Part shown: positions 5,094 through 64,000 of the stretch, one piece after another
Layout: each line of letters begins with the position of its first letter
How positions within the stretch are numbered: position 1 is the first letter of the stretch
Source: Takakia lepidozioides
Lineage: Eukaryota; Plantae; Bryophyta
Reading direction: 5' to 3'
Assembly (NCBI GenBank): GCA_030704615.1
Contig: CM060733.1
Span: 45,632,001 to 45,696,000 of the forward strand
DNA length: 64,000 bases
Program-made: the position numbers and the translations under genes
Notes under the pieces: generated by a model
The model's input: the letters and a program-made list of their open reading frames with translations, nothing else
Told to the model about the DNA's origin: nothing
Database searches by the model: none

Positions 5094-5420
5094 TGATAAA
5101 GAAGAAGAATACAAGCACAAGCTCATGCGAGCTCACAAAGCTGAAGCATAAACTCATGCATATATAACCTCATCACTCAAATACAAGTCAAGCCAAGTGC
5201 ACCCCACGCCATGGGGAATCCACACTACGGCGCCATAGCTAGGCGCGGTGAGGCTCAACTCGAGAAAGATGAGCCTCCCGCGCTTGCCGTGAAGATAACC
5301 ACTCCAGGGCCTAAATCTGCCTTGACCCCTGGATTGACACTTGGGCCAATCCCAAATGTCAATATGTAAAAGCTAGCTATTTCCTAGCTAGTTTCACACT
5401 AGTGGTAAAATAACTTGACA
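5094..5420 (-). repeat. 5' terminal repeat (segment B, TG...CA, 327 bp) of retroelement copy 1
   Basis: TG/CA ends. Shares ggctcaactcgag, cgtgaagataa, tttcacact and taacttgaca with copy-2 segment B. Confidence 0.85.
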
Positions 5421-27599: not shown

Positions 27600-27870
27600 A
27601 CTAATTGAAAATTGAAAAATATCATATAAAGAACATTCATAATACAAATCTGTCAGTTGTATCAAAACCTCCCGTTCATTTGTATTCTCATGCATGTGTC
27701 AGCCAAGTAGCCCTGGAAAAGGGCAAAGAGGTCAATGCTGACATCACCCAAGCTGGGATTGCCCGAGATATCATTCTGGAGACTACTCTAGTTGACATGT
27801 ATGCCAAATGTGGGAGTATGAAGGATGCATTCTCAGTGTTTGACAGAATGGCTAAACAAGATGTGGTAGC
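27600..27870 (+). pseudogene. PLS-class PPR fragment
   Basis: ALEKGKEVNADI...LETTLVDMYAKCGSMKDAFSVFDRMAKQDVV is paralogous to 33100..35454. Confidence 0.85.
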
Positions 27871-28749
27871 CTCCGCAACAATCCATTGTAGGGCAATAAC
27901 AAGTGCTACGATTTTGAGCTGCGATTTTCAAGCTAAGTGTCTAAGTGTCGGGGCTCAGGAAGAAAACAATGCAGGGATGAAAAGATGACTGGATGGATGC
28001 TAAGGTGGCGTACAACATCCAGTGGGAATATTTAAGATGACGTGCGGATGAACGGACTCGACAGTTGGTCATCACTAGCTGGATGGATAAGTAAGCATAG
28101 CTGGATGACAAATAGATGAATGAAGGTGGTAATTAACATAGAAAGGTGTGCTTATTCATCCGTATGGATGAAAAGAAGTAGCTGCAGAAAATCTAGGGAT
28201 GCACGAGTATTATCAGCGTGTAGACGCAAGGGAGATAATTACCCGCGATCTGCCAAATAAAAAAAGCCGAGAGCGATGGGTTAGCCATGGAATTAGCGGT
28301 CTCTCAGCGCACCGTCCGCTGTGGATAGGGGCACCGGGGAAGAATATAAGCAAGTGGTAAGCATGAATCAGGAGCTTGGACTTGTGAGCAATGTGTGAGA
28401 GATGGGCTGATACAGTCCAGACTGAGTGAAATGGTGATTATTTGGTGCATATGGCGAAGGTCTTGTCTCTTGAGATGCAATGTTTGGAGCATATAGATGG
28501 ATTAGATGCTTAAGGATTGGGGGTTTGAATTTGAGATAGGGACCCATCAGATTATGCCAGAACTAAAGCAGGTTGATGACAAGATCTTCAAATTATTGTT
28601 TTGAGGGAAAGCATCATGGGCACTTAGAGCACAAATAGTTAATCGGACCAAGAGTATACTCATGGCAACTTATAGGTGTTTGATTCATTTCCATAATCTA
28701 CAATGGAGATGGAAAACCCTTGGAATCATAATGACAAGTAGTATAGATC

Positions 28750-30800
28750 TTGGGCACTTGAGAACACAAATGAACGTAACGTTGTTGGGTGTCACCCCTT
28801 CCTGTATCATTTGATCATAGATATCTAAAGCCTCCACACCAAACCCATGCAAAGCATATCCTGCGATCGACATTGCGTTGGGATTGCGCTCCATGATACC
28901 ACATCTTGCTCAGCCATGTTGTCAAACACTTCCCGTGTATCCTTTAAGCTGCCGCATTTAGCATACCTATTAAAAAATGCATTTTCTAAGGAGATCTATG
29001 AGGCAATTCCATCTTTGATGATGTCAGCATGGACCTCCTCCAGGGCTGTTATGCTAGCACATGCATTGAGAATGGAAATGAACGTGACCTTGTTGGGCGT
29101 TATGCCTTCCCGTATCATCTGCTCATACATCTCAAAAGCCTCCATCATCGCACTCCATGAGACCACATTTCATTGAGACGTTTTGTCAAAAACTAGTCTG
29201 GCATCGTTCAAGCTCCCATACTTGGCATACATATCGACAAGGGCAGTCTCCAAAATGATGTCAGCTCATGGACCTCTGTACATTTTTGATGATTGTCACC
29301 ATGGACCATTTTCCAGGGCTGCCAGGCTTGCACAAGCATTACAAACGCACACAAACGTGATGTGGTGGCACTTCATCCGTTCCCCTATCATTTGCTCATA
29401 GGTTTCCAAGGCCTCCGTCCTGCGCCCCTGCTGTGCAGATCCTGCAAGCATCGCGTTCCACGACACCAAATCTCGTTCAGCCATATTTTTGAACACTCCC
29501 ACCGCATCCTCAGGCACATATCCCCAAATGAGGTTGAGGTGCCTGATTCTATCAACTGTGCTGCTGCAGCTACTGCCTTTAGTTGACCATCTACCCATGC
29601 AGGGTTATTGTAGCTATTGATCCACATGGAATCATAGGTCATCTGGAGCTTGAAGTCTGGCCCTCTTGGATGAATCTATCCACCCACATGCTATCCCTGC
29701 TCCTTCAGCTATCCATGCCTCTGCACAAATCATACATACATCCTTGCCTTGCTGCTATCAACTGACAATGACAGCCTAGATTTGTTCTAGGAAGCACCCA
29801 ACTCAACTTATCACACTAGTTCCTATGCTCAATTGCATCTGCTACTCTCTGTAATCCAGCAGACATTCACCTTTTGCCTCCATTGTCGGGCCACTATTGA
29901 CTTGGGTTAGAAAAGTATTCATTCCACAACCTCTCCTCGTCTCTATTACCTGTTTCTAGATACTTCCCTGTTGTCACATTGGCAGTATCATGTCAAAGTC
30001 AACCTCCAAACTATCAAAGGTTCATTCAACCAACTAACTTGCAAAATTCAACATGAAAATTTAGGGCCGATTGTGATAAGAGGGAAAAACAGGGTGAAAT
30101 GTGTTGAAGAAGGTGCCTTCATTAGCAATGCCTGAATTTATCAATTGTATGTGGCTTCCAGTTGACCATCTACCCATGCAGGTTTCTTGTAGCTATCATT
30201 CCACAGAGAATCATAGGTGATCTGGAGCTTGAAATCCGGCCCTCTTCGATAAATCTGAATCCACATCTCAGGGTCGAATTTGATGAGAAGGCAAAACAAG
30301 TTGACATAGGTCGAAGAAGAAGGTGCCCTCACCACATTGTCCTTGACCTTGTTTCATTGACCCATGGACACATGCTAGCAGCTGACACTGACCAACCCAA
30401 TTCTGAATTGTATCTGCTTCTCTCTATAGTCCAACAGGCATTCACCTTTTTGTCTCTATTGTTCCACCATTGACTGGGGTCGGAAAAGTGTTCATCCCCA
30501 AAACTTCTCCTCATCTCTGTTATCTGTTTTTGGATATTTTCCTGTTGCCACAACGACAGTAACTTGTCACGGCCGAGTCTGAGAGAGGGCAAAACAGGCT
30601 GAAATAGGTCGAAGAAGAAGGTGCCCTCACCACATTGTCCTTGACCTTGTGTCATGACCCATGGAGGATTTGGCCGACCATCAACCCAAAAGGACCTCTG
30701 TGTGTGTTGTTTGTGTCTGTAGTCAGGTAATGTCAGATTGGTATGTGAGAATCGCCACGATGTAGCTGAGCAGGCAGAGATTGAAACACGGCCTGCTAAG
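28750..30800 (-). pseudogene. Rearranged paralogue of the PDF-motif/PPR gene
   Basis: PPR fragments at 28750-29500. PDF motif pieces FSDPSQWWNNRDKK, GPDFKLQITYDSLW...PAWVDGQL and WVDGRPNPPWV. Internal duplications (about 29580-29680 versus 30160-30260). Confidence 0.8.
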
Positions 30801-32819: not shown

Positions 32820-35454
32820 GGAAATATCCAAAACTAGGGAATAGAGATGAGGAGAAGCTTTGGAAGGAATATGTTCCATGGGACAATCAAGGCAGAAAGG
32901 TGAATGCCTCTTACTTTACACAAACGCAGAAGCAGATGGCAACTTTCTTGCAAATTGTCATCCTCCCTCTCTCCCAAACACACATTTTTGAAGTCTTGTC
33001 AGTAATAGCAAAGGAACTAGTATGTGGTAAGTAGGGGTCAAGTAAATCCTGGGTTGTCATTGTCGGCTATTAGTAGCAAGAGGGAGGATCAATGTATTAT
33101 TGTTGTCTGAGCCAGGGATAGATGGAGGCAGGAATGGAGTGAGGGTGCAGATCGATCCAAGAGGACTGGATTTCAAGTACAGGAGTACACATGAGGCAGT
33201 GTGGATAGACAGCAACAAGATATCTGCATGGGTAGATGGTCATCTGGAAGCACCTGCAAGACAGTTTACAGAATCAGGCACCTCTGCCATGACCGCTCCT
33301 AAAAATGGACCAAGAGATGGAGTCTGCAAGATCTCTTCTGCCACTTGTAGGCATGTGAGGATTCTATGTAAGGCAGGACACCTGAAAGAGGCTATGCATA
33401 TTTTGAACCGAGGGGGCATTTCAGCAGACTCTAATACGTATGTGTGTCTTTTGCAAAACTGCATGAAGGTGAAAGGCCTAGCCACGGGAAAGCAGGTGCA
33501 CGCCCACATCGTCCAAAGTGGATTTAAGCCAAATGTATTTCTATACAACACCCTTCTCAACATGTATGTCAAGTGCAGGAGCATCATGCATGCACACAGA
33601 TTGTTTGATAATATGCCTGAACGAAATATGTTCTCGTGGACTATAATGATGGCAGGATACACTGAGCATGGGTGTAGCAGGAATGCCTTGGAGATTTATG
33701 AGCAAATGATACAGGGAGGAGTGACGCCCGACCAGGTGACATATATATGCGTTCTCAAGGCGTGTGCCAGCCTGGCAGCCCTGGAAAAGGGCAAAGAGGT
33801 CCATTCTGACATCATGAAAGCTGGAATTGTACCAAACATCATTCTGGAGACTGCCCTTGTTGACATGTATGCCAAATGCGGAAGCATCAAGGATGCGAAG
33901 GGAGTTTTTGATAACATGGCTGAACGAAATGTGGTCTCATGGAGTGCGATGATCACAGGATATTCCCAGCAGGGATGTGGGATGGAGGCTTTAGAGACAT
34001 ACAGACAAATGATCCGGGAAGGGGTGAAGCCCAACCAGGTCTCGTTTGTTAGCATTTGCAATGCGTGTGCAAGCTTGGCATCCCTGGAAAGGAGCAAAGA
34101 GCTCCATACTGACATTAGGAAAGCTGGAATTGTACCAAATGTCATTCTGAACACTACCCTAGTAGATATGTATGCCAAATGTGGAAGCATTCAGGATGCA
34201 AAGACGGTGTTCGACAACATGTGTGAACGAAATGTAGTCTCATGGAATGCAATGATCGCAGGATATGTCCAGAATGGGTGTGGGATGGAGGCTTTAGAGA
34301 CCTATGAGCAAATGATACAGGAAGGGGCGAAGCCCAGCCAGGTTACGTTTGTGGGTGTTTGCAATGCGTGTGCCAGCCTAGCAGCCCTGGAAATTGGCAA
34401 AGTGGTCCATGGTGACATCATGAAAGCTGGAATTGTGCCTAATATCATCTTGAATACTGCCCTCGTGGACATGTATTCCAAATGTGGGAGCATCAAGGAT
34501 GCAGAGGGTGTGTTCAACAAAATGTCCACACAAAATGTGGTGTCGTGCAATTCGATGATTGCGGGATATGTCAAGCATGGTTGTCATACGGAGGCCCTGC
34601 AACTATTTGAAGAAATGGGAAAGGAAGGCTTGAAGCCAAACAGTATCACTTTAGTATGTGTCCTCTCTGCTTGTAGTCATGTCGGCCTATTAGATGAAGG
34701 TAGACACTACTTCAATTCCCTGAGTCAAGATGATGGCCTCACCATGGAGCACTTCGGTTGCATGGTGGACCTTCTTGGCCGTGCAGGGCGATTGGATGAG
34801 GCAGAGGATTTCATCAACAAAATGCCAATTGAACCAGATGTTGTTGTGTGGGGGGCCTTGCTTGGTGCCTGCAGAATCCATGGTAATGTAGATGTAGCCG
34901 AACGTGCGGCAAAATCCATTCTCAAGTTGGATCCGCAGGATGTTGGAACTTATGTGTTGCTATCAAACATCTATGCAGCAGCCAACAGGTGGGACGATAC
35001 CGCAAAGGTGAGAAAAATGATGAAGGTCAGAGGTGTCAAAAAAGAGCCAGGTCGCTGCTCCATTGAGGTCAGCGACAAGGTGCACACCTTTATTGTTGAT
35101 GACAAACTGCATCCACGAATTGAGGAAATCCATGCTGAGGTGAGAAGATTATCTGGGCAGCTGAAGGAGGCGGGGTACGTGCCTGACACGCACTTTGTAT
35201 TGCATGATGTGGAAGAGGAGCAAAAGGAATTTTCTCTTTGCCACCACAACGAGAAGCTGGCCATTGCCTTTGGGCTGATCAGCACAGCCCCTGGGATGCC
35301 CCTCCATGTCATCAAGAACCTTCGTGTGTGTGGTGACTGCCACACGGCCACCAAGTTCATCTCCAACATTGTTGGCCGAGCAATTATTGTACGGGATGCC
35401 AACCGATTTCACCACTTCCAAGATGGGGTTTGTTCTTGTGGGGATTACTGGTGA
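32820..35454 (+). CDS. PLS-class PPR protein with E/E+/DYW deaminase domain (organellar C-to-U editing factor type), N-terminal OSB-type PDF motif(s); true start further upstream
   Basis: Repeated P/L/S motifs, then KKEPG.., HNEKLA, CGDCH and terminal DYW. A phase-0 intron 32900-33150 joins EEKLWKEYVPWDNQGRK to IDPRGLDFKYRSTHEAVW. Confidence 0.93.
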
Positions 35455-48290: not shown

Positions 48291-48732
48291 GTTTGCATCG
48301 GTGAGGGGGCTGCTATTTCATGAGCCATGAGCGGCATGAGCCATGAGCAGAGTCGTAAGTGTGGAAAAAAACATGAGCAGCACTATTTTCCGAAAATGAG
48401 TGTCCGCGGGAATAGGGTTTAGGGTGCCACGGTCATAGGGGGAGAAGGACCTCCCGATGAAGGAGGTTCGGCAATGTTATTTAGAATTATATATTGAAAG
48501 GCAATGTTTCGCGAATGGAAGGGTGGTACTGCTCTGTACAATGGGGGCCCATTTCAGCCTACCAGCCACTTGCAAAATCCACCCACACTCCCAATCCCAA
48601 ACGAAATGAGCAATGACGCATTCTCGGAACGATGGACATAGAATAGAATAAAAAGAGGGCACAATGAGGTTTTTATTGATCCACATTAATTGCATTTGAA
48701 GCACGTCTACTGTGCTGATTGTGCAATCAATT

Positions 48733-49254
48733 TGTCGTGCGCATACATATCGCTACACAACTACATCGCTGTCCAAACCACACCACACATATATGCACAA
48801 TAAAGTAGTCTACCACAATGATAAGAAAACTCAAACCACACTGTTCACACAAAATATGAAATCCATCAACATCACTCTTTAATATAATAGTCGAGCCAGG
48901 GGCACCCCAAGCTATGGGGACTCCACCCCACAACAACCTATACCCCTACATAAGCACACTCAGATTCTAAAGCATGAAGGAGCTCGGTCGCGCAGGCTCA
49001 ACTCGAGAGAGATGAGCTGCGCGACTGCCGCTCTCGTGAAGATAAGACGGACCAGGTGTCAAACTAAACTTGACACCTGATTTAACACTTGACCTAAATC
49101 CAAGTGTTAAATACAAATAACTAGTTTTATGCTAGCTGTTTTCACACTGTGCTTATTTAACTTGACAGCTGTCGTGCGCATACATATCGCTACACAACTA
49201 TATCGCTGTCCAAACCACACCACACATATATGCACAATAAAGTAGTCTACCACA
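48733..49254 (-). repeat. 3' terminal A-B-A repeat block
   Basis: The A copies (85 bp) differ by 1 substitution. The B copies differ by 1 substitution and a 4-bp indel. A purine-rich AGGGGGGCG on the minus strand lies at 49257-49265, next to the inner A. Confidence 0.95.
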
Positions 49255-49513
49255 ATCGCCCCCCTAGCTGGTGGATAGGTCCCTCTACCTCCAGATAGCT
49301 ACAAGACGTAATAGCCATAGCCGTACTAAGTCCTGTATCACTGTCCCTATCGTACTCAAACTCTATAGACCAAGAGGCCGGGTGCAAGAGTAGCCCCATC
49401 GTTAGTCGCCGTCTTGCAATCTGTGAACTTGAGCCAGGACTTCGTGTATTCAAGGTCTCCTGTAGCTGGGCCTTGCGTTGCTTGTTAGCCTCCCATGGTT
49501 GTATCCACTCCCA

Positions 49514-50806
49514 CTATCCAATGCATTGTGGACATAACCAATCCCCATTTGGAACCATCTCAAGAGGTGGAGTCAAGCACCCCATATGCCAACCTCTAGA
49601 GCATCGATCACACACCAGCATGGTGGCTGCCCCTTTAGCAGACCCACACAACATGCACCTCAAACCTGCAGATACCACTGCCAGGTTTGGGTCAATCCTG
49701 CCATCGACATTCGGAAGGTGACATGGCGCACAATTACGCACATGGTCCTTCCAAGTTATGCCATCCCGACCCTCCAAGACCAAGACGCCTGAGGGCAAGA
49801 CCTCTCGAACCCTCAAAATAACACGTCCTGCAGTCACATCCAGGGTCGTAGGAGCAGTCTGCTGCAGATAGACATAGTCACCAGGGTTGAATCTCCGAAC
49901 CCCAGGACGATAGCCCCCACCACGTATGGTAGCATACCTCAACGTATCACGGTGTTGTGCAATGGCAAGGTTCTCGAAAGCCATGGGCATGACTCTCTTG
50001 AACAACTCTGCACGCTGCTCACATGCACGTGCCCACACGTCCGGATCATCAAGGTTAAGAACTGTAGCAGCTTCTCTGCGAATGGATGTAGGCAAATCCG
50101 GCTCTCGGCCAAAGAGAAGAAAGTATGGTGAGAAGGAGGCAAGTGATGCTTGCTTGATGAACCTGTAGCCCATGGCTAACCAGGGTAACTGAAGGTCCCA
50201 ATCTCCTAGGTGTCCCTTCTGCAAGCCATACTTGCGCAAACCCCTCTTTACTGTCTGAACAACTCTCTCTGCCAAGCCATCGGCTTCAGGATGATCCCGA
50301 AAAGTGGTGCGGTGGTCTATCAAGGCCTTGTCACACAAAGCCTGAAACTCCCCCAAGAACTCTCTCCCTTGGTCCGTGAGTACCTCAGCTGGAGCACCGA
50401 ATCGGCTAAGCACACAATCCAGGAATGCATACGCAGCTCCCTCACTAGCCTTATCAGGCAATTGAACCAATTCAATCCACTTGGAGAAGTGCTCCACCAT
50501 CACCAACACGTACTTGTTGTGGCGCATGGTCAGTGGCAACGGCCCTGCGAAGTCAAGACTCCACTTGTAGCCCAATCCCATGATCGGAAGAGGGTGCAAT
50601 TGTGGAGTAGGGGCGTTGAATGAAGCACGCACCCTGTCACACACCATGCACCTAGCCACAAATTGTTGCACCTCTGTGTGCATACCACGCCACCAATACT
50701 GCCCCTGCAGTAGACTATGAGTGCGTCGCACCCCAAAATGCCCCAACTCCTCATGGGCATGCCGCACTAACTGTGCCCGCTGTGTTGGGTGAGGCACAAT
50801 CCTCAC
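49514..50806 (-). CDS. DDE integrase with HHCC zinc domain and C-terminal PHD finger
   Basis: HEELGH...CMVC, SLDFAG, LTDQGREF and GLAERV, then CMLCG...CDRCSRGWHMGCL...WLCPQC. Confidence 0.93.
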   Translation of the reverse strand: MRIVPHPTQRAQLVRHAHEELGHFGVRRTHSLLQGQYWWRGMHTEVQQFVARCMVCDRVRASFNAPTPQLHPLPIMGLGYKWSLDFAGPLPLTMRHNKYVLVMVEHFSKWIELVQLPDKASEGAAYAFLDCVLSRFGAPAEVLTDQGREFLGEFQALCDKALIDHRTTFRDHPEADGLAERVVQTVKRGLRKYGLQKGHLGDWDLQLPWLAMGYRFIKQASLASFSPYFLLFGREPDLPTSIRREAATVLNLDDPDVWARACEQRAELFKRVMPMAFENLAIAQHRDTLRYATIRGGGYRPGVRRFNPGDYVYLQQTAPTTLDVTAGRVILRVREVLPSGVLVLEGRDGITWKDHVRNCAPCHLPNVDGRIDPNLAVVSAGLRCMLCGSAKGAATMLVCDRCSRGWHMGCLTPPLEMVPNGDWLCPQCIG

Positions 50807-51493
50807 TCAACCATCCTCCCACACTCGGAGCAGGTGTGTCCCCTCCCACCTGAACCTCTTGGCTCGTTGTAGGATCCGATCCCTCTCCTTGGCAGTCATA
50901 GTGGCTGCCGTGTCTCCACTGCGGAGGTAGTCCAACACAACTGAATCCTCATGTATATCTTTGGCGCCACCCTGCTCATTGCTGGCCTCAGGGTCCTCAG
51001 ACACTTGATCTATAGTCATCCCTGTTGTAGGTCCAACCTGGCCTTCCGCTGCCAAGATACACAGAAATGCAGATGCATGCCATCCGGGCACCATCTCCTC
51101 GTCCGTCTCACCATGCCACCGAGCTCCAGTGTCATCCTGCTGGCTCGTGCATGGATTGCGACTCAACCCATCTGCATTTCGATTGACCAAACCCGGTCGA
51201 TGCACCACCTGAAAGTCATACTCTTGAAGGATGAGTGCCCACCGTGCAAGCTTCCCCGTAAGCTTGTCTGACTCCATCAACCACTTGAGTGGTTGGTGAT
51301 CCGTGACAAGGGTGAAAAGATTGCCGTATAGATAGCACCTGAAGTGTGCCACGGCCCACACTGCAGCTAAGCATTCTCCCTCATATGAGCTATACTTAGA
51401 CTCTGCAGCATTGTTCGAGCGGCTAGCATAAGCCACTACGAACTCTCTTCCCTCATCATCCACCTGTGTGAGCACCGCCCCAGCATGCTCCAA
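50807..51493 (-). CDS. RNase H region of pol (frameshifted from RT; stop at 50807)
   Basis: GAVLTQ...VVAYASR...YSSYEGECLAAVWAVAHFRCYLYG..FTLVTDH.PL. Confidence 0.9.
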   Translation of the reverse strand: MEHAGAVLTQVDDEGREFVVAYASRSNNAAESKYSSYEGECLAAVWAVAHFRCYLYGNLFTLVTDHQPLKWLMESDKLTGKLARWALILQEYDFQVVHRPGLVNRNADGLSRNPCTSQQDDTGARWHGETDEEMVPGWHASAFLCILAAEGQVGPTTGMTIDQVSEDPEASNEQGGAKDIHEDSVVLDYLRSGDTAATMTAKERDRILQRAKRFRWEGTHLLRVWEDG

Positions 51494-52700
51494 TCTGTAT
51501 GCAGCTGAAAAGGACGCCCCCTGATAGGTCGTCTCAAGATGGGCGCCGAGGTCAACCTCGCCTTGAGCTCTTGAAAAGCTTGTTCTTGCTCATCTTCCCA
51601 CTGCCACTCCTGGTCCACCTTGGTCAGCTTGGTTAGAGCCTTTGCAATGGCACTAAATCCCTTAACAAACCGTCTGTAATAGTTTGCTAACCCCATAAAA
51701 GCTCGAACTCGGCTCACATCCGTGGGGCGTGGAACCTGTGCAATGGACTCTACCTTAGTCTGCTGTACCCCCAATCCTCCTGGATATATCATGTGACCCA
51801 GATACTCAATCTGGTTGTGGAAAAACTTGCACTTGCCCGGATGTAACTTCAATCCGTGCGTCCTCAAGCGCTCAAATACCCCCTGAAGGTGTCTCTCATG
51901 CTCCTCCACCGTAGCACTAAAGATGATGATGTCATCTATGTAGCACCGAGCAAACTCCACCCCTGCTAGAATCCTGTCCATGACTCTTTGAAACTCAGCG
52001 GGAGCGTTTTTAAGCCCAAATGGTAAGAACCGCCACTGGTATAGGCAATCCTTCCCGTGCTCATTGATCCCCCAGAATGCCGTCTTTTGCTTATCCGCCT
52101 CCTTGATCGGCAACTGGTGATATCCGGATCGTAAATCCAACGTGCTAAAGACCTTGGAATGCCCAATGGCATCAAAGATCTCCTCTGGTGTTGGCATGGC
52201 ATACCTATCGGACTTGGTCTGACGATTTACAGGCCGGTAATCACCGCACATACGTCTCTCCGTCCAATTGCCATAGACATCCTTCTTAGCTGGCATCACT
52301 GTGGCTGAAGCATACTCTCCACCAGAGAGCTCCACCAAACCTGCCTCCCAGAGATCTTGAGTCCTCATCTGAATCAAAGACCTCTCCATGTCACTGTATC
52401 TATAGGGTCTCCGAAAGATTGGCGTGTCAGTGGCCAACTCAATACGGATCTCTTGACCCTTCAGTGCTCCCAAGTCCTTCAAACTGAAGGCAAAGCAATT
52501 CCTATAAGCCCTCAGGAACCGCCGTATACGTCGTCTCTCTCCTCCGGTGACAATGGGTCCAATGTCAGGCTCCCAATTGTCCTCCGTAACTGCAACCTTA
52601 AGTCCAGTGGGCTTAGAGGTAGAGGACGCGTCCCGTGGTTGCTATGCTGCAACCTCTTGAGCAGTACCCCCTTCCTGCTCAGTCAATGACAAGGCCTCAT
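51436..52700 (-). CDS. Ty3/Gypsy reverse transcriptase
   Basis: RMCGDYRPVN, LDLRSGYHQ, LPFGLKNAP and YIDD. Confidence 0.95.
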
Positions 52701-52709
52701 CCTGCCCCA

Positions 52710-55700
52710 TCATCTCATCATTGAGAACCTCCTCATCCCGAGAAGAATCCCAACCTCATCCATCACAGCTGCCTTCGCTGCCAACTCCCTCTGAACCTCG
52801 AGCACCTCCCACATGTGCCATGGATGTCTACACCTCGTGGTCCTCACCGGCTCGCCCCCACTCGCTGCCTGTACCGTCTCGGTAGGCAGAAAGACCGTCA
52901 AGGGAAGTGCACTCCGCACTCTACGTTGCTCAGCCATAGCCAAGCTGACAATCCAGGTCAAGCAATTGAGATCCATTGCTTGCCCCAACACCTGACGACG
53001 TGATGCCTCAGAAAGAGAAGGCACCGCCGTGGTCCCAGTGGAAAACCCCATAGCCCGCTCTCGCTCGTCGGCATTAGGCTCCACTAACTGCTGCAACTGA
53101 GCATCCCACAGGAGGCCAGGTCCACCATCCCGAAAAGCATGGGATCCTGGGAAGCTGAGCAGTGTAGGTAATGCTGCTCGTGGTTGACCCACCCTGTTGA
53201 CCACTGCCAAAGGCAAACGGTCATCGTGTCTCACACGTTGAGACTGTCTTCCTGTGTCCAAAATGCCATCCACGGTGAGGTGTGCTGGCCGCTGCACCCC
53301 ATCAAATGCACGCTTGAGCAGTGCGGGTGGCATCAAGTTAGTCCACCATAGTCGTGGACGATGAGCCCGTGACCCCACTACAGCTGCATCCAGCAATACT
53401 GCTGACCCAAGCCACGACCGGACTTGATGCACACTGGCCATCACCCTGGCCCGAGAATCACCCATCAGTGGTACATTCTCCAAGATGTATGCTGGAGATA
53501 CAGCTTGATGAAGCTGCAAGCAGCGCAAAATCCGCACCATCTCCCAAAACAGACCCGTCCTCGAGTCTCGCAATCCATTGCCATGCCCGGCTGATGAATG
53601 CCCTTGGCAGGGCCAACCTGCCACTATCAGATCAATGGAGCCAACCTGCTCCAAATCTTGCGCCCCCAACAAGGAAATGTCTGCTGGCAAGGCTTGTTGG
53701 TATCCACGAACTGCAGACACAGGCAACAAGTCAGGGTACTGCTGTACCAACTGAGCCACATGGCGCAGTGAGACGCGTCGTGCAGTCTCATCCCTCTCCA
53801 CATACAGGTAACGCCTTACCCGCACACCTGCCTGTAGCACAGCAGCCAATCCGGTGCTGATCCCGCCAAACAAGTCCAGAAGGCAAATGCCTTCATCCGG
53901 CCGCTGCCACACAAGAGGTGTGGTGTCCAATGGCGACAACTGAGGTGGCCCTGGTGCAATCACCGCACTCTCCTCCTCTCTTGACGGTACAAAAGCTTCT
54001 ACCCAAGCTTGTTGCACCCGTCCATCAGCAGCTTGCTGCAAATCCTTGCTCGTACCCCACAACGGAGTGTGAGCAACCATGGCAGGCAACTCCGCCGTAC
54101 CATGCATGTCATCCTGCTCTGCTGGAGGTGGCACATCCTCTGCATGGGCATTGCCTTCCAGCAACTCTCTAGGCCAACTAACTGCAGCTGTGAAGGCGGC
54201 TAGTGTTGGCATCTTGCCCCGCTGAGCAGCTGCAATACCCCCAATGAATGTCACAGGGAGCTGTGCACGGCGACCATCCCCTGACTGCCATCCAGGCCTG
54301 TAGGATGCTGACTCCTCCCAGAAATCCAGGGTGAAGCCCATGGGGTATAACACTGCCCCACCAACGAGGACATCGTAAGAGACCGCATCTGTCACAATGG
54401 CCTTGGCTCGCATCACTGAGCCATCTACAGGATGATCCGGCTGCAGTCTAATAGCCAACTGATGTCGTGTCATGCCGCGAGCCTGCTCTGATCCTCCCAG
54501 AGATGTCTGTATCTGGAAAGGACAAGGCTCCATATCCGCCTCCATGAGGTCCAAACCTGCAATAGCAGCTCTGCCCAACATCAGTGGCTGAGCTCCTGAG
54601 TCCAACAAGACCCGCAGTGGCCGGTACTTCTTGCCTGCCGGTCCACTCAAAGTGAAAATGCCTCCCTGGTTGTCTAACAAGACAACTCCAGGTGTCACCA
54701 TGGCGCGCTCAATGACTGGCCTAGCTGGCAGCTCCGTTAACCTGGCAGCTGCAACTTGCCATGGCGCAGCCGTGGCAGTCTTGACCCTCAAATCCGAGGA
54801 TCCCTCTGCCACTACACCTTCTACTAACTCCGCAGAAGATGAAGTGACCTCCCCACTCTCACAGAGTGTTGCTGCTAGTCTGAACACTGCAGCTGGTCTC
54901 ACCCCCGGCATCGCAATCATTGTTGCCGAGAACAGTGGGGCCTGACACACAGAGGTGGCTGCCCCCAATAACACACCGGCCGCACTAGCCTTGGCAGCAG
55001 GAGTCAATGCTGCACGTGTAGCTCTCCCCAATGGCATAGTAACCTCCGCCTCGGTAACAGTCGGGCGAGAACTAGGTGCCATGGATGGCGTCGACACAGT
55101 CTCCGCCAATGTGAATGACTGAGGAAGCCTTGCCTGACGGCTTGCCTCCCCACGCTGTGGATCCAATTCCACCTCTGCACCTCGTGGCTCAGGAACTCGT
55201 GCTGCTCCTCGAGTCACGGCTGCAGCAGACTCCACCTGCTCTAGTGGTAGTGCTGCTCCGCACATAAATCCCATGCCTCCCATATCTCCTCCCTCAGGAG
55301 CAGGAGGTGGACCATCCCGCCTGGGAGCCGGTACCGCCTGAGCTATAGCCATGGCAGCGAGCCTCTGCTCTAGCTGCTGAAGCCGGTTGGCCATGCCTTG
55401 ATCAACACCCTGACCTCCGCGTCCTTGGCCATGTTGAGGTTGCCCTTGGCCTGCACCTTGTGACCGACCACCTCGTCCTCTCTGGGCTGGTCCATTTCGC
55501 CCCCGGCCACCATTGTTCCCTTGGAACTGGCCTGGGCGCAACTCAGGATGCAAGTCATAACACTGGGCATCTCCATGCCCATACTTGCCACAATGCCCAC
55601 ACTGCAACTGTGCAGGCTGTGCTTGTGGCGGCCTTCTGCCATTCTCTGGGCAATCTCTTTTGACATGGGGTCCTCCACATATCCAACATATCACCCCTGG

Positions 55701-56843
55701 TTGCTGTTGGCCTGCAAAAGATGCCACGGGCCTCTGCACCTGAGGTCCCCTGTAAGCTCCATGGAACTTGGGCTGGGCAACCTTGCCCCCCTGACCACGC
55801 TGTTGGGCAGTCCCTTGTGCCTGTGGGCTGACAGCTGTGCCCCGTACAGGCATGTCCTTGCCAAATCCAATTGTAACAACTCGCTCCTCCACCATGTTGA
55901 GCTCAATCTGCTCAGCCAGCAGAAACACATCTGCTAAGGTGGGTTGGGCTGCTTGTAACAGGGTTGCATCTCGCACCCTTCTCTTGAGCTCCTTGTCCAG
56001 AATTCCATACCAAAACTGGATTGCCTGAGCTTCAGTAACCCCTTGGGTCACACTTATCAAGCGCCTCATACGAGTGTACGCCTCTCGCAGGCTCTCACTG
56101 GGTTTGCGCTGGAAGTCTTGCAAACTTCGCAGCTTCTCTGTCCGTACACCTTGGTAGTTCCTCCGCAACTCCTGGAAGAACTCCACCACCGGGTTGAATC
56201 TAGGCACATGTGTTGTAGTCGTGGCAGGAGGAGTAGTAGCACCTTTTGAACTGGTACCACCTGCAGAAGTACCAGCACTACTTGCTCCACTACTAGTGCT
56301 GGCAGTGGGAGCTATTGGTACTGATGCAGCTACTGGTCGCGTCGTGCCTCGAGTAATGGAGACGTAGTCAGGTGACCAATACATCCTCCACTCCTCAATC
56401 TCTGCTTCATGTCCTCGCCTGAACTCGTGGTAATCGTCCATAGGCGGGCCTTCCAAATGCTGGAACAGTCCCTTCCACGCCATGAATGGGGTGAATAGCT
56501 GTGGATTGCGCATCTGCTGCAAATCACACCAGCTGTCGAACTCCTGGATAAAGTCATCCAACTCAATTGTGCCCACAGCTCCAAAGTACCTACGAGGCCC
56601 CTTGGTAGCTCCATACATCTCCTCCATGTCGTCCCACAACAATGGCGAATGAAAGTGCACACCTGTTGATGAAGCCTCCGAGTCTGTGTCTGACTCTACA
56701 GTAGTTGAGGGTGGCGGTGAAGGTGGTCTGAACCGAATACCTCGTCTTGTGAACCCACTCTCACTGTCACTGCTTGTAGCCGTACTCCCCTCAAAACCCT
56801 TGGGTAACTCCATAATGACACTCACAATGTGCACCTCCTCCAC
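52710..56843 (-). CDS. Gag (two zinc knuckles) - aspartic protease - C5 cytosine DNA methyltransferase polyprotein
   Basis: CWICGGPH...C, CGHCGKYGH....C and LLDSGAQ. MTase motifs LDLFGG, E (YVE), DI, AGWPCQ, ILENV, RPRLWW and LGQAM lie at about 53890-52960. Confidence 0.93.
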   Translation of the reverse strand: MEEVHIVSVIMELPKGFEGSTATSSDSESGFTRRGIRFRPPSPPPSTTVESDTDSEASSTGVHFHSPLLWDDMEEMYGATKGPRRYFGAVGTIELDDFIQEFDSWCDLQQMRNPQLFTPFMAWKGLFQHLEGPPMDDYHEFRRGHEAEIEEWRMYWSPDYVSITRGTTRPVAASVPIAPTASTSSGASSAGTSAGGTSSKGATTPPATTTTHVPRFNPVVEFFQELRRNYQGVRTEKLRSLQDFQRKPSESLREAYTRMRRLISVTQGVTEAQAIQFWYGILDKELKRRVRDATLLQAAQPTLADVFLLAEQIELNMVEERVVTIGFGKDMPVRGTAVSPQAQGTAQQRGQGGKVAQPKFHGAYRGPQVQRPVASFAGQQQPGVICWICGGPHVKRDCPENGRRPPQAQPAQLQCGHCGKYGHGDAQCYDLHPELRPGQFQGNNGGRGRNGPAQRGRGGRSQGAGQGQPQHGQGRGGQGVDQGMANRLQQLEQRLAAMAIAQAVPAPRRDGPPPAPEGGDMGGMGFMCGAALPLEQVESAAAVTRGAARVPEPRGAEVELDPQRGEASRQARLPQSFTLAETVSTPSMAPSSRPTVTEAEVTMPLGRATRAALTPAAKASAAGVLLGAATSVCQAPLFSATMIAMPGVRPAAVFRLAATLCESGEVTSSSAELVEGVVAEGSSDLRVKTATAAPWQVAAARLTELPARPVIERAMVTPGVVLLDNQGGIFTLSGPAGKKYRPLRVLLDSGAQPLMLGRAAIAGLDLMEADMEPCPFQIQTSLGGSEQARGMTRHQLAIRLQPDHPVDGSVMRAKAIVTDAVSYDVLVGGAVLYPMGFTLDFWEESASYRPGWQSGDGRRAQLPVTFIGGIAAAQRGKMPTLAAFTAAVSWPRELLEGNAHAEDVPPPAEQDDMHGTAELPAMVAHTPLWGTSKDLQQAADGRVQQAWVEAFVPSREEESAVIAPGPPQLSPLDTTPLVWQRPDEGICLLDLFGGISTGLAAVLQAGVRVRRYLYVERDETARRVSLRHVAQLVQQYPDLLPVSAVRGYQQALPADISLLGAQDLEQVGSIDLIVAGWPCQGHSSAGHGNGLRDSRTGLFWEMVRILRCLQLHQAVSPAYILENVPLMGDSRARVMASVHQVRSWLGSAVLLDAAVVGSRAHRPRLWWTNLMPPALLKRAFDGVQRPAHLTVDGILDTGRQSQRVRHDDRLPLAVVNRVGQPRAALPTLLSFPGSHAFRDGGPGLLWDAQLQQLVEPNADERERAMGFSTGTTAVPSLSEASRRQVLGQAMDLNCLTWIVSLAMAEQRRVRSALPLTVFLPTETVQAASGGEPVRTTRCRHPWHMWEVLEVQRELAAKAAVMDEVGILLGMRRFSMMR

Positions 56844-59800
56844 GTGACACTATAAGGCTCTAGTACTAATCTAATAGTGACACGGGTGGGCACCTGTTGC
56901 AGTCTAAGGGTCATATCCCAATGGCTCAGGGCACCTGCACCTGCATCCACCGCAAGAACTCCTATGGTTGGCTGGTCATCACTCCAGCCTCACCACCAAC
57001 AGCATACTCTAGGATTGACCGGTGATCAAATCCGGCCTAATCCCTATGAAAGCAAGCGCCCACACAAAACCAACATGGCGCACAGTCAAGCATGCAGGTG
57101 TTGGGGGGGATCCAAACACAAGAAATCAAAACATCAACACCCCCACACCAAAATCCAGCAGCAACGCTGATCCTGCAGAATATCCCAGCCCAAAACCCCG
57201 GACTGACTGGCCTCCACCAAGAGAGGCTTTGGCAACTACAAGTACAAGGTAATGAAAATAGTACAGAGATGGAGGGGAAGAACAGAAGCCCGCCCAAGCA
57301 AGATCTAATCCTGATCTATGCTATCAACTTCCAGACTTCTCTCAAAGTGCCTCGCTCTGCTTGATGGTAAGGTGTAGGAGGTATATCTATGTCCAGAAAC
57401 CTGCCACTAACCTTGTCCCAAGCTACAGTAGCTCGCTCTAATCAACCCTCCTCCTCTTTCTGCCAGGTAGAGACAAAGCAACACTCTACTATCTCCCGCT
57501 CACTGAACACTAAAGAAAACAAAGGTAGGGTCTGATAGTCTCTCAACTCGAAAGCTTTGAGACGGTTGCGGGTGTCCTCATTGCGAATGACTGCATCTCC
57601 TTCACGCACAACAAACATGTCATTGCTGATGAACCCCCGCTCGTGGTTGCCCTGTGCAGAGCGTATCCGGCTGCAACCATGTCTGATTGCACAAACTTGT
57701 GTAGCTCCTGCTCCTCTGCTCCAGTACACCACGGCCTTGTGGCTGAACACCTTGGTCCCCGGGGCTGTCTTTGGCTGTGTTCCAAGCCTAGCTTTCACCC
57801 ACTTTGGTATTTCACCTACAGCTGCAGAACTGCTGGCTCCAACAGAGTTCTGACTGTCCAAGGCGATATTGAGGCCCTCAATGCCAACTACAGCAGTCTG
57901 TTGTCTACTGCTAATGCCTGACTCCCAGTATGCAATCAACTCGTCCAACTGTTCTCCACCCAAATCAGTCTGAGTTCCTTGGGAAACATAAATCCTGTCC
58001 CCTTGTGTGCACAGGCTAAGAGAAGAGACCTGCCCTTCAATTACGTCCTCATTTCCCCCAGCCATACAAGGAGTACATCCACAGATTTGTCTCTAATATA
58101 GACCAGCACAGGTTCTAGAAACAGGATTGTGGATCTTTCATGACACACTCACACTCTAAAAATTCCATAGATTTTTAGCAGAGTCCCAAAAACAGAAACC
58201 AGGTCTAGATAGGTAGATTTCCCCTTTCTGCAGCTATCCCCTCAAAAACTGAGTCAAACGGAGCTCATTTGACAAAGATATGACCAACCAGGCTCTTTAA
58301 ACATTTAAATTAGATCAAAAAGGTTTTTTTTTTTTTTTTAACACCAAAACGCTTTTGCCATTACAACCTGTTCCCAGGTTATCTACGAGTTCCCGAGGTC
58401 GTTCCCCTCCAGGATTCTCCAGGCACCAAGAGCTCGTTAATTCCAAAACTCGACCTCAGTTATGGATGGGGTATCACACCCTAGGGCGATTTCAAGAGCA
58501 GGTCAAGAGATGCACTGCGCAGCACCTTCATGGCTTATGGACAGGCGGCCTGCAATCGAAAGATTCGTGGATGGTTGCTGGACTTGCACAATACATCTAC
58601 CACATCGGAGGTGAAACCGAGGAACTGACTCCCACATATGACATTGCCAGTGTGAGAGGAAAAACAAGTTGTCCCATTGGTGGATCCCTTCGATATCACA
58701 GAGCTTTCAGGTGCACTTGGCTTGACGGCGAGAGTATTTGGCAGAACATCTCTTCCCTGTTTCTGTAAAACCCTGCACCTGCTTGCCATTACTTCTGCCA
58801 ATTTTTCCAGTCTCTAATTCTAGTTTAGAATCCTGCTTTGCACCCATATCCTGATCGTCCTCAATCTCTTTGGCAATATGGTGTGTACTGCCATCTTTGA
58901 TTCCGACATCTGCATTTAGTTCTTTGCTTCTCCTTTTTGTATCCCCTGATCCTACATTGTTCCGGTTAGTGTAAGTAGAAATTGGGGAGCTGTTTTAAGC
59001 GCCTGACAATGGGGAGCAATGGACCAGGGAACACAGGAGTAGCTGCGTGGCCTCGTACACCTGAAGGAATCAACCGAGATCTTCTCAGCTGCTTGGCACC
59101 AGCCCTGGAAAATATGGGTGGGGAATCACTCACAGGACTCAAAGGATCGTTATGGCCCACAGCTGGCCTAACCACTGCAATCACAGGCTCTTCGGCTACG
59201 GCATTGCTTTTCGGCGTTCTCTCCACATGTTGCATTCCATTTAGAGTGTCATTGTAGTGGTAGCCAATTGGCACTCCTATAATCACGCCTACGTTGAGCC
59301 AGGCTCGCCATGCATGACTCTCAGCCCCATCTCAGCAGTTGGTGACTAGCATCAACATCTTTCAGTTGACTCTCTCTCTATGTACGAGGCTTTGATTTAG
59401 CAGCCACAACTTATCAGCGTCGTTTCCCGAAATGATAGGGTCTCGCCGAGAGATCACATAACGACTCCTCGGCGCATGGCAATGCCTTAGTTGACTTCAA
59501 CCTGCCCTCCAGGCCAAGATTGTCCAGAACAAACACACCCCCGAATCACTGCCTGCCGCTGCACACTCAGATGTACCCAAGATTTTATTGCTCTCTTCAG
59601 CAACCCAACCGGATCAGACTAGTCAGCCAGACTCAGGCTGCACAACTCAAATTTCTCCAGACCATCCCTGCACACTCGATGATTTCCAAGACTCCGGAAA
59701 GAGCCTCCTCCTGCAAGAACCCCAGCCTCTCTCTGGCTTTCGGAGCGCATGCGTACAAATCATTGCGACTTCCTCAGTCTCTCGCCATCCAAAATCACAA

Positions 59801-60127
59801 CTTTTCTTCGCGTTTGAGCTCTCAAAATTCTGCAGCGAACTTGTCTGCTACAGAACTGGCCATATCTGTTTGGTAAGCCCGCAGCACCCGCAACCTGCAA
59901 TTGTCAACCACGGAAGAGTTCAACCAAGCACGCAGCGCTCATCGCTGCACAGTCAGCGGAGCTCGTTCCGCTCCCATCTCCTCCCCCACCACCCAGAAAC
60001 CAAAGATGATCGAAACCTGCATGTTTCTTTTTTGTTTATTAAGCTTATTAAACTAAGCACTACTTACACACAGGTAATCATACAAGTGCTAACCCTCAAC
60101 TCCTACCTTGCACTCACAGGTAAGAGG

Positions 60128-60141
60128 TCATCTCTCTCGAG
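60128..60141 (-). promoter_or_regulatory. Self-complementary primer-binding site
   Basis: tcatctctctcgag is the reverse complement of ctcgagagagatga at 60321-60334 (and 49002-49015). Confidence 0.8.
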
Positions 60142-60486
60142 TGATAAGAAAACTCAAAACACACTGTTCACACAAAATATGAAATCCATCAACATCACTC
60201 TTTAATATAATAGTCGAGCCAGGGGCACCCCAAGCTATGGGGACTCCACCCCACAACAACCTATACCCCTACATAAGCACACTCAGATTCTAAAGCATGA
60301 GCTCGGTCGCGCAGGCTCAACTCGAGAGAGATGAGCTGCGCGACTGCCGCTCTCGTGAAGATAAGACGGACCAGGTGTCAAACTAAACTTGACACCTGAT
60401 TTAACACTTGACCTAAATCCAAGTGTTAAATACAAATAACTAGTTTTATGCTAGCTGTTTTCACACTGTGCTTATTTAACTTGACA
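60142..60486 (-). repeat. 5' terminal repeat (segment B only)
   Basis: Near-identical to 48819-49167; TG...CA ends. Confidence 0.95.
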
Positions 60487-60518
60487 AAATCTTTAGCCCT
60501 GTGCCTACTGAATACAAG

Positions 60519-61349
60519 TCACGTTGTCAATGGGACTTCGACTGCTCTCAGAACTAGCTCATGAGTCATGGGGCTCCTCCAGGTAAAGTCGATTGCAGCC
60601 GTTGTACTGCCCCTAGTGATGTTCACCACAATGTCCTGCCCTTCAATCATACCACCATCGAATATGGAAATCTTCACGTTTTCGTCGTCCACACCAATGC
60701 GAATGTCCCTATACAATGGAGAAGAGGAGCACACTCCTTCAGGAGAATAGGTCTCTCCGATGGAGTCCACCCACGTCCAGTGGCAGCAGTTCCACCGCAA
60801 CAGCATAGCAGTGCGCCTTCTTCTGCATGGGTGACCGTCGTAGCTGGGAAAATCGGAATCGAGGATGCACAGGAGCCACGGACTCCTCAGACCAAGATCG
60901 TCACCCCGCTCGAAGGCGTAGTGGCCTAGGATATACTCAAAAGCCACCAATGTTTCCACAATCGAACCAGTATCTTCTCTGTAATCTGTGTACCAGATAA
61001 CAATGTCTCCCGATGTGGCCGAATACATTGCATAATCGATGCCTCCAAATGGGCAGTCGTCCCGGTTCCGGAAGCACGACATCCTTGCAAAGGAGGACCT
61101 GAGGACGACTTGGATGCCGATGACCTTGCGAACAGCTACGAAGCCCTTAGATTTTGGAAATGATGCGAAGCGGAAGAGCAGTCCGGCCTCCAATAATGGA
61201 GCATCTGGGTCCCACGTACCCACCGACGGAGGTGGAACGTGTTCATCACGCCAGCGGTGGATGAACCCATACATCTTTCTCATCAACAAGTTATAGTTTG
61301 AGATCTGCCACCGAAGTCCATCCCCCCGGATGGAAATTCGGCGCCGCAT
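60519..61349 (-). CDS. Unknown protein (MULE copy-2 cargo)
   Basis: 276-codon open frame with an inverted paralogous fragment at about 61600-61790. Confidence 0.5.
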   Translation of the reverse strand: MRRRISIRGDGLRWQISNYNLLMRKMYGFIHRWRDEHVPPPSVGTWDPDAPLLEAGLLFRFASFPKSKGFVAVRKVIGIQVVLRSSFARMSCFRNRDDCPFGGIDYAMYSATSGDIVIWYTDYREDTGSIVETLVAFEYILGHYAFERGDDLGLRSPWLLCILDSDFPSYDGHPCRRRRTAMLLRWNCCHWTWVDSIGETYSPEGVCSSSPLYRDIRIGVDDENVKISIFDGGMIEGQDIVVNITRGSTTAAIDFTWRSPMTHELVLRAVEVPLTT

Positions 61350-61859
61350 TTACATCGAAGAGGGGATGGACTTCGTCGTGTCCAGTGGCTATCGGCCCAC
61401 CTGGCAGTGACTGCCCATAGTTTGCATGGCAGGGTAGGAAACTGAAACGGCTACATTCATGCAGCAACCAATCTTCATCGGTCCAGGATCCTGTAGGGGG
61501 GAAATTTAAATGTGCCCTGGAGTGTTTGTGAGGAATTGCAGCGTTAGCTTGAACTTTTTCCAGCCACCGCGCTGCTCCTCCTCCATCCGGGAGCTGCTGT
61601 CATTGAGCGTACTCCGCTACTCTTTTTCAAGGATGCCGTGCCGCCGAAATCCAGCCGACTGCCCTTATCATGGCCACGATTATGCTATGTTCAAACCAGA
61701 ATTAGGAGACATCATTGTCTGGCTCTCTGTTTTCACAAACGCTGCTGGAATCAAGCAAGAGCCGCAATGGAGTCAACCGCTTTCGAGGTGAAAAATGAAA
61801 ATTGTTTCGTTACACGAAATACCAACACGGGTCTATAAATTGGACAGAAACGAGGTTGG

Positions 61860-62432
61860 CATTGCAAATGCGGCGACGCATTTCCAGCTTGGCAATGGAA
61901 ACTTCTTTTTGGACAAGGGAATGCGGTGCCGCATTTCCGTCCAACACTTCGAAAAGTGCACCTATTTCCGACCAGCGCGATGGAATGCGTTACCGCATTT
62001 CCGTGAGAGGGTCTGCAAATGGACAAATTGCGATGTCCGTTCTGGAAATGCGGCGCCGCATTTCCATGTCCGTCATCGACTTTTTTTTTACAATGGAATG
62101 CGGTGCCAATTTTTGCTGATGGGCCTGCAGTTCGAACAACGACCATCCCCAATATGGAAATGCGGCACCGCATTTCCAATTCCGCCATCTCGACCTCCTT
62201 GTTCGACCTCTGTAAGCGTGGTGGCATCCATGCAATGAGCGGGAGAGGCCAAAACTGGTGTGGACAAAGGAAATTTTGGAAATGCGGCACCGCATTTCCA
62301 ATCGATTACTTTTTACTATGCCAACATTGAAATGGAAAATTTAGTCCCTCCCCTGTTTTGGAAATGCGGTGCCGCATTTCCAAAAGAGGTTTTTAGAGTT
62401 GCCAAAATTTTGGAAATGCGGTGCCCCATTTC
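61860..62432. repeat. Cluster of palindromes TGGAAATGCG-N4-CGCATTTCCA
   Basis: Copies near 61865, 61918, 61981, 62043, 62093 (half), 62155, 62277, 62359 and 62411. Outliers near 61331 and 63736. Confidence 0.9.
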
Positions 62433-63138
62433 TGATTTTGGGAGCGTCGTGGTTTGGGCGATTGTGTGGCTGGAATGCACACTGGAGAGGGGTCACGAAT
62501 GTCGGGCAGAATTTCCTTTATATACTCTGGAAGAGAATTTACATTTACAGAGACTTCATTAAAATTCTATTAATCTTGAAAATCATCCGAATCCTCATCC
62601 TGTTCTAGACTGTCCTGCTCCGCCTCCACCCCCTCAGTGCCTTTCTCATCTCCAGCGGACTGCTCGTTGGCCAGGCTTTCGAAAATCCCATCTTCCCCTT
62701 GCGGAACTGTCCATCTCACCTCCGTTGGGTCGTCTTCCTCCCTGTCTGCGTCGCTCTCATCCGCTGAATCACATATGTACTTTCGTACCCGTCTACCTGT
62801 CTGAGCTGCTGCCAACTCTTTCCTTATCCTTCTGTCCTCCCTAGCCCTCTCCAAAATCTGCTCTACTTTACTGGGATTCTCACTTCTTCTAATCGCTGTA
62901 TTTGCGAGTTTAGCTGCATAACTAGGAAGGGAGTAGTCCCTCACCGGGCTCGTCATGAAGTCGGCCCTCGCAAGAACGGGACATTCTTCCTGGCAGGAAG
63001 TGTAGGCCCTACATGTTTCGACCCGGACCCTGCAATCCTGCACATGACAATCATCAACGAGACTAATGAGAACCACAGTCGGGAAATTCGTTTGACAAAA
63101 ATGACCCAGAAGGCTTTGCAAACTTACAATGTTTGCAC

Positions 63139-64000
63139 TCACTCGTATTCCGGGTTCTCCTCCGCATCAATGTCCACTGTGTCTTCCTCGGACTCCGACG
63201 AATCCGAGGAGACTTCCGCTCTGTTGGGAGCCTTAACATTCCGTTGCAGCCCTTCCAGATGGGATCCCCACACGGATGAATCCTCCTCGTAGGCAAAGAG
63301 GTGCCGGTCGGAAAACCGCCCAGCCCACATTGAGGCACCTGTTACAATGCCATCCACACATTACCACATGGCGCTTCAGATGTTGCGAACTACATCCTAA
63401 CGAGAATTTGCAGAACAGCATAGATCAAGATTCTGCATACCTGTCCCACAGATGAGGTCGAGCACTGTGCCCTCCACGTCTGTGCATGTCTCCATAATTG
63501 TCTGAATGAAGGCAGGGCTCCGAGTCCGTGAGTACCGCAGGGGTTCCGTTGAAGTGAGGCTATGAGGGAGAAGTTCCTTGGGAACGTTGTTGAACAGAAC
63601 GTCGTAATCGAGGGGGTCGCAGTTCGGGTCAACCTTTCCTCCCTCCTTCCGGAAAGCAAAGGTGGAGTTCTCCTTCACAAAGCAGTATGCATCGAACTGC
63701 TTCGTCTGCATACACAGGGGGAACGATTAGAAACCGAATGCGGCACCGCATTTGAAAACACCCAAGCAAATGAATGGACGAGTGCCAGTGTCGTAATCAC
63801 CTTCTTCCCTTCCGACCGAAGGCCCAGTGTGTTGATGCACGTCCACTTCTTTTTCAGAATCGGGACGGCGCTCTTGCGGGTCCACTTCGCAATTCCTGTC
63901 TGAGTGTTTTTTCCTCTGCTCGCCAGGACAACCACACAGCCTCTGTCGTCCAACACCATGCGGGCAAGCCCGAATCCTTTCTTCCAAAAGTCCTCCGAGT
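63139..64000 (-). CDS. 3' exons of the amino-MTase-like cargo gene of MULE copy 2
   Basis: LDDRGCVVVL...WTCINT, QTKQFDAYCFVK...RSPAFIQTIMETCTDVEGTVLDLICGTG and ASMWAGRFSDRHLFAYEED, with the same intron positions as 20139-21195. Confidence 0.82.

Follow-up and report, generated by a model that had tools for sequence, protein, structure and literature searches.

We describe a Gypsy-type long terminal repeat (LTR) retroelement whose repeats are split and whose inserted ends lie at a palindrome within the repeat unit. The element spans 11.75 kb (48733–60486, minus strand) of a 64,000-nucleotide stretch of Takakia lepidozioides contig CM060733.1, hereafter the window. Lettering follows the DIRS convention: the long repeat found at the element 5′ end is A, and the short repeat is B. 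A first-pass annotation of this DNA had used these two letters the other way round. The element reads A1-PBS-gag/PR/DNMT-RT-RH-IN-PHD-PPT-B1-GC-A2-B2, with a primer-binding site (PBS), protease (PR), cytosine methyltransferase (DNMT), reverse transcriptase (RT), RNase H (RH), integrase (IN), and polypurine tract (PPT). This layout is a real, family-wide trait of a Gypsy-type clade. To judge from sequence comparison, this internal palindrome is most likely the attachment (att) site of the DDE integrase.

Split repeats and an internal palindrome

The first-pass annotation had proposed a split-repeat layout, and alignment of the repeats bears this out. In the window copy, B1 and B2 are identical at 85 of 86 positions, and A1 and A2 at 344 of 345 aligned bases, with one 4-bp gap. 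The PPT and PBS placed beside the short and long repeat, respectively, were both found, and the retained short|long joint was located at 48819/48820. The perfect palindrome reported at 49164–49173, GACAGCTGTC, is present and occurs once in the window. The element termini, TGTC and GACA, are its two halves, and the 2-nt spacer between these halves is lost at inserted ends.

Relatives were collected with the integrase as query, yielding 80 metagenome loci (L numbers) at 46–84% identity. Two further eukaryotic-looking contigs, L081 and L082, came from a bacterial assembly; they sit in a cyanobacterial genome assembly and are probably eukaryotic contamination. A usable downstream B was present in 50 of the 80 loci, representing 36 independent insertions, while the other 30 offered none because of a short contig, interruption, or excess divergence (L017 stops at B). 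L019 and L020 are truncated at the 5′ end, L080 is without the palindrome motif, and the flank of L076 (46% identity) is too short. L040, which by eye has a single B, stands outside the count of 36, as do L025, L027, and L081.

These 36 3′ ends comprise 15 of the form B-GC-A-B, 19 with a single B, and 2 aberrant ones, and none ends canonically at A. The arrangement lettered B...A-B-A in the first-pass annotation, B-A-B at the 3′ end in our letters, is thus a family trait, and L082 is one more B-A-B copy. B was found upstream of A at none of 13 independent 5′ ends (there was one 15-nt chance match, and the L059 flank is 48 nt). Whole, identical LTRs at both ends, bounded by the PBS and PPT as in Ty3/Gypsy elements, were not found. 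The window layout recurs in 16 other independent insertions, whose integrases are 53–80% identical to that of the window. Outside the window, the organism's own copies are known from short contigs only. In its sequencing run X1, 22 contigs reach the palindrome-derived end and continue into unrelated flanks (agreement 0.39), and the B|A joint is present in 9. Contig depth over B is about twice that of the internal region, a ratio not taken as copy number. On a quick, unrooted integrase tree with no named reference clade, the layout occurs in two subgroups, and one family lies beside a Sphagnum fallax protein.

The palindrome is significant because it is conserved in relatives, not because 10-bp palindromes are rare; the window contains 68 of them. 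Of 20 loci checked, 19 have retained it when up to 3 mismatches are allowed; the spacer is GC in 9, AC in 6, GT in 2, and AT in 2, the variants all being one or two transitions from GC. B itself is 61–67% alike between subfamilies, while the palindrome stays. The RT-defined ends differ from one subfamily to another, and those of L001, L059, and L082 do not have the TG...CA form. We also considered whether one element might be nested in another, the short repeats being the LTRs of one and the long repeats those of the other, and rejected this reading because both repeats are always coupled via the same palindrome.

The window copy had been described as having no clean target site duplication (TSD), which proved incorrect: the TSD is 4 bp, not 5, and reads AATT at one end and AAAT at the other, with one mismatch. 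The empty site was also recovered. Contigs run from the left flank (48730) straight into the right flank in three of four sequencing runs (at least 8 contigs in X2, at least 5 in X4, and at least 2 in X5), and the target reads AAAT. Among 14 two-ended copies, 3 of them paired across contigs at 97.7–99.5% identity, 10 have a perfect 4-bp TSD and none has a perfect TSD of 3, 5, or 6 bp. TG...CA ends with a fixed TSD of 4–6 bp are as expected of Ty3/Gypsy elements. Ordinary LTRs with 5-bp TSDs in most copies, the pattern that the first-pass annotation had set against its own reading, appeared neither at the 36 3′ ends nor in the 14 two-ended copies.

The coding region has the PR-RT-RH-IN order and DDE integrase of Ty3/Gypsy elements. 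Its best PDB match is Ty3 Gag-Pol (E 2e-18), and gag shows a weak Pfam match together with zinc-knuckle-like motifs. The integrase, noted at first as a DDE type, carries HHCC and D-D-E motifs, and no tyrosine recombinase was matched in the 27 of 28 element-region open reading frames (ORFs) of at least 100 aa that were scanned, the remaining ORF lying in the flank. No chromodomain match was found at the integrase C-terminus, where a PHD finger stands instead. A DNMT match is present in 37 of the 41 relative loci long enough to show one, and the window element's DNMT region is 74% identical to a Marchantia protein. The integrase-PHD pair also occurs in proteins named from Haematococcus, Pleodorina, Volvox, and Tetrabaena; a viral collection gave no match to the integrase, and no alignment either. 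DNMT-carrying Gypsy proteins (P0121–P0154) occur in Marchantia (up to 75% identity) and Sphagnum. In L076, a distant GC-rich relative with a DNMT match, the ORF extends beyond the PHD finger, and motifs read by eye from the DNA ~800–1100 nt after the integrase resemble a second, amino-type methyltransferase.

The PBS and PPT flank the internal region, as in Ty3/Gypsy elements. The PBS is not tRNA-like, being a 15-nt complement of a site inside A. This priming type, the DNMT domain, and the damage to pol in the window copy were all absent from the first-pass annotation. This PBS-A pairing is kept with different sequence in a second element of the clade within the window (17 nt) and in L005 (17 nt), so that self-priming pairing of 15–17 nt spans three subfamilies. 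Among 12 old loci, 4 have no exact PBS-A match of at least 6 nt, and 2 more have 7 nt only.

Possible routes from cDNA to inserted copy

In the standard LTR cycle, the cDNA ends are set at the PPT and PBS borders. Because the PPT adjoins B and the PBS adjoins A, reverse transcription should here yield the unit B-GC-A at both ends. As its sequence reads, the A2|B2 joint results from fusing the end set at the PBS with the end set at the PPT. Among 12 independent copies of one family, 10 have an exact joint; of the other two, L006 retains one extra PPT base, and L011 retains four PPT bases plus a 17-nt insert that matches the nearby A end at 13 of 17 positions. B2 appears to be recopied from B1 every cycle, because B1 and B2 are closer inside a copy than across copies (distance 0.068 versus 0.085; permutation p = 0.0026), no column shows a fixed B1/B2 difference, and the pair is near-identical in young copies (106 of 106 positions in L082).

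We favor, at about even confidence, a route in which the integrase opens a ring-closed cDNA at the PBS-side palindrome, bypassing the RT-made ends. The RNA would begin in A1, self-prime at the PBS, and end in A2. Given the positions of the PBS and PPT, ordinary reverse transcription would then produce B-GC-A, the internal region, and B-GC-A again, with ends that lack a conserved att site. The two RT ends would fuse into the A|B joint, whose product is seen and whose timing the route supposes. The integrase would next cut after CA on both strands of GACA-GC-TGTC, giving processed ends with 2-nt overhangs. The inserted product, A...B-GC-A|B with a 4-bp TSD, is what we see. One-LTR circles would yield A...B copies, which would be dead ends because they have no downstream R. 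The upstream palindrome may be chosen as its duplex is completed first: the upstream LTR duplex should be complete right after the second strand transfer, long before the plus strand spans 9–11 kb, and integrase loading could happen there first.

The first-pass annotation had suggested a two-LTR circle reopened at an internal palindrome. The palindrome-derived ends and the fused RT ends support that idea. A plain symmetric circle would not suffice (see below), and closure before insertion is a tentative part of the route. Single-B and B-A-B copies are intermixed on the tree and equally diverged (0.113 versus 0.108, p = 0.39, 27 copies); given this, formation of the single-B class at insertion fits the data.

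A fold-back copy shows how ends may arise outside the usual layout. L077/L079 and L078 are one copy (99.5% identity over 2755 nt). At its 5′ end stands its 3′ region in inverted form, closing with B; at its 3′ end, past A and the primer copy, the first half of A appears, again inverted. These pieces form one continuous stretch split at the palindrome, with both spacer bases missing, and the copy is flanked by a perfect 4-bp TSD. An end is therefore made wherever the palindrome sits, even inverted, with the two halves linked via the rest of the molecule.

Several points weigh against the ring-closed route. The evidence consists of inserted copies throughout, and no circle, cDNA, or integrase cut was observed. 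The mirror form A-B-A...B is seen in none of the 7 single-B copies whose 5′ end is visible, each of which starts with plain A (p ~1e-5 if ~80% were expected). An extra bias to the PBS-side palindrome is needed, because a closed, symmetric two-LTR circle predicts A-B-A...B equally often. The fold-back evidence is a single case and is compatible with cutting before joining too. The nearest B2 is the copy's own for just 2 of 11 B1s, which makes for a modest homogenization signal in the old family. Despite 99.4% identity to the B-A-B copy L006, L009 has one B and a different flank; the single-B case L056 shows no TSD match; the end of L041 is damaged; and single-B copies could stem from later B-by-B recombination or short-read assembly. 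In the window copy, pol is broken: the frame changes near 51480, and a stop precedes the integrase. Counted for neither side, the circular contig L081 (127-nt overlap) has the order PPT-B-GC-A-PBS and L025 reads alike, an order that fits one-LTR circles, a canonical 5′ LTR, or repeat collapse.

Inserted copies alone cannot tell whether the RT ends join before insertion, which we hold to be evenly balanced, or after it, which is less probable. In the latter reading, itself tentative, the integrase would cut the upstream palindrome on linear cDNA and hold both new ends, with no closed circle. The free RT ends would form a break inside the inserted element, which host end-joining would turn into A...B-A-B and B-B annealing into A...B; this repair scheme is possible at a similarly low grade. 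Cutting first would account for the missing A-B-A...B form and for the mixing and equal divergence of single-B and B-A-B copies, the latter resting on an age test that is weak at 27 copies, and it fits the templated insert at the L011 joint. It requires a double-strand break per insertion, yet 10 of 12 joints are base-exact, and the fold-back copy is simpler as a one-LTR-type circle. Cutting first and ring closure share all of the palindrome and TSD evidence, and jointly they are highly probable.

It is improbable that the A-B tail is inherited via RNA or made by a third RT template jump, with the linear cDNA already ending at the palindrome halves. Equally doubtful is its corollary that the integrase is left with normal end processing only. 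Such an origin would suit the mostly exact joints, and a plus-strand end-to-end jump would meet the upstream palindrome first, which might explain the asymmetry. Pure inheritance, however, predicts separate B1 and B2 lineages, whereas there is no fixed difference and the pairs track each other. The TGTC 5′ end has no adjacent PPT, so at least one palindrome cut would still be required.

TG...CA ends, a variable 4-bp TSD, and loss of a 2-nt spacer are DDE signatures, and here they point to a DDE integrase, not a tyrosine recombinase. A DIRS/PAT/Ngaro-like route, in which a tyrosine recombinase supplied in trans recombines the circle junction into the target, is largely refuted and very unlikely. 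A1-B1-A2-B2 is the layout defined for PAT and Ngaro in the relevant passage of PMC4157794, but the scanned ORFs gave no recombinase match and do contain the motifs of an integrase. A one-off rearrangement or assembly artifact is refuted: it would explain the odd layout only, and although short-read chimeras do occur among the loci (L009), the same layout is found in the 16 other independent insertions and in the window organism's own contigs.

Feature coordinates and surroundings

Table 1. Features of the split-repeat element, listed from its 5′ to its 3′ end in window coordinates.
Feature	Position	Strand	Remark
Target site copy, element 5′ end (AAAT)	60487..60490	.	empty site from contig ends
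A1, long repeat, starts TGTC, element 5′ end	60143..60486	-	repeat comparison
15-nt self-priming site in A1, complementary to PBS; putative transcript start region	60320..60334	-	
PBS, self-priming type, adjoins A1	60128..60142	-	
Long 5′ region, no Pfam-matching ORF	56850..60127	-	
ORF of 1379 aa between stops, with gag, an aspartic-protease-like motif, and C5 cytosine methyltransferase	52710..56849	-	
Reverse transcriptase and start of RNase H	51436..52641	-	frame change near 51480
RNase H	50807..51589	-	in-frame stop, then integrase
DDE integrase (HHCC, D-D-E) with C-terminal PHD finger	49514..50806	-	
Polypurine tract, adjoins B1	49257..49266	-	
B1, short repeat, final letters CACGACA	49170..49256	-	
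Palindrome GACA-GC-TGTC linking B1 to A2; putative att site	49164..49173	.	
A2, long repeat	48820..49167	-	
Same self-priming site in A2	49001-49015		
A2|B2 joint	48819..48820	-	one shared base assignable to either side
B2, short repeat, final letters GACA, element 3′ end	48733..48819	-	
Target site copy, element 3′ end (AATT; one mismatch to AAAT)	48729..48732	.	

The element is nested in another high-copy repeat (48300–48732 and from 60487 on), whose ORFs at 60519–63166 have no Pfam match. The second element of the clade, ~70% identical, occupies window positions 1–5420 on the minus strand, with its 3′ end outside the window. It opens with plain A, whose end is at 5420. From this end into the flank the sequence is GACA-GA-TGTC, which resembles the palindrome, and no B comes after it. 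Its 5′ region contains 51-bp and related tandem repeats (1870–3580).

Elsewhere in the window, two long minus-strand ORFs (824 and 560 aa) at 9510–13510 appear Mutator-type transposase-like by eye, with a weak SWIM match (E 0.1), and a 116-bp tandem array lies beside them at 14360–16090. At 17271–20033, inverted repeats of ~510 bp with 90% identity surround a 352-aa ORF without a Pfam match, likely a DNA transposon. A PPR-E-DYW gene at 33046–35454, with related fragments, partly inverted, at 27670–30665, indicates a land plant that edits its organellar RNA.

Comparison with known retroelements

The layout has been in print once, as a remark. The legend to Fig. 4c of De Mendoza et al. 2018 (PMC5890265) describes KnitGypsy-Dnmt3 of Klebsormidium nitens as combining DIRS-type repeats (A-coding-B-A-B) with Gypsy domains. 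The novelty first claimed for split repeats with Gypsy domains therefore does not extend to the layout; not found in print were the internal att site, the 4-bp TSD, self-priming, the single-B class, the asymmetry, and the fold-back copy. No account of an internal att site or mechanism appeared in the literature searched, a search with Repbase and subscription papers outside it. Both elements join a cytosine methyltransferase in a Gypsy polyprotein to DIRS-like repeats. The likeness is by description alone, and that description, as far as the legend and nearby passages of PMC5890265 go, mentions no TSD, palindrome, priming mode, or mechanism. KnitGypsy-Dnmt3 comes from Klebsormidium nitens and the window element from a land plant, and no Klebsormidium-named sequence is among the listed integrase-PHD or DNMT protein relatives. 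An opinion paper (PMC6338049) holds that DNMT-carrying Gypsy transposons are absent from land plants; contrary to it, our results place such elements there.

A further lead, from description, is the active Chlamydomonas element Gypsy-7a_cRei, which has a PHD finger and LTR subparts and whose left LTR lacks the last 8 bp of the right (PMC9940879, Fig. 6A legend). Possibly it is a relative whose LTR is likewise split and whose B is very short. The Gypsy elements Tf1/Sushi and Tcn1 are self-priming, with a PBS complementary to the LTR and not to a tRNA, according to passages in PMC6317226 and PMC2864245. The present clade shares their self-priming PBS and PR-RT-RH-IN order, and differs from them, as described there, in having a PHD finger for the chromodomain, a DNMT, and split LTRs. 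Finders that demand two whole LTRs, as in the REXdb survey outlined in PMC6317226, are expected to miss or mis-bound such elements.

The tyrosine-recombinase retroelements PAT, Toc, Kangaroo, and Ngaro carry A1-B1-A2-B2 split direct repeats, as summarized in part of PMC4157794. The window element shares these repeats with PAT and Ngaro; unlike all four, it has a DDE integrase, no tyrosine recombinase match, TG...CA ends, a 4-bp TSD, a PBS, and a PPT. Split repeats thus do not imply a tyrosine recombinase. It could equally be true or false that this clade reached the split-repeat design of those elements with a DDE integrase, choosing the upstream palindrome by an undescribed mechanism. That an old green-lineage Gypsy clade moved its att site inside the LTR and made circular cDNA an obligatory integration precursor is likewise a proposition with about an even chance.

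Circles of LTR elements were once proposed as integration precursors, a proposal that went unsubstantiated, and were later viewed as dead ends, in the background given by PMC1180852. A passage of that paper reports that foamy virus integrase cleaves each strand of the junction palindrome after CA, so that 2-nt 5′ overhangs remain; in the account excerpted from PMC4372172, 2-LTR circles of HIV-1 can act as a reserve. The clade described here resembles these viruses in pairing a DDE integrase with a palindrome that would be cut after CA on either strand. As these accounts present it, the palindrome of foamy virus and HIV-1 arises where the RT ends are joined, and its cleavage is a side route that restores an ordinary provirus. 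In the present clade, by contrast, the palindrome is internal to the LTR, and all usable copies end at it. These insertions carry what is most likely a record of cutting at an internal palindrome as the usual pathway, which makes the question of circular precursors testable.

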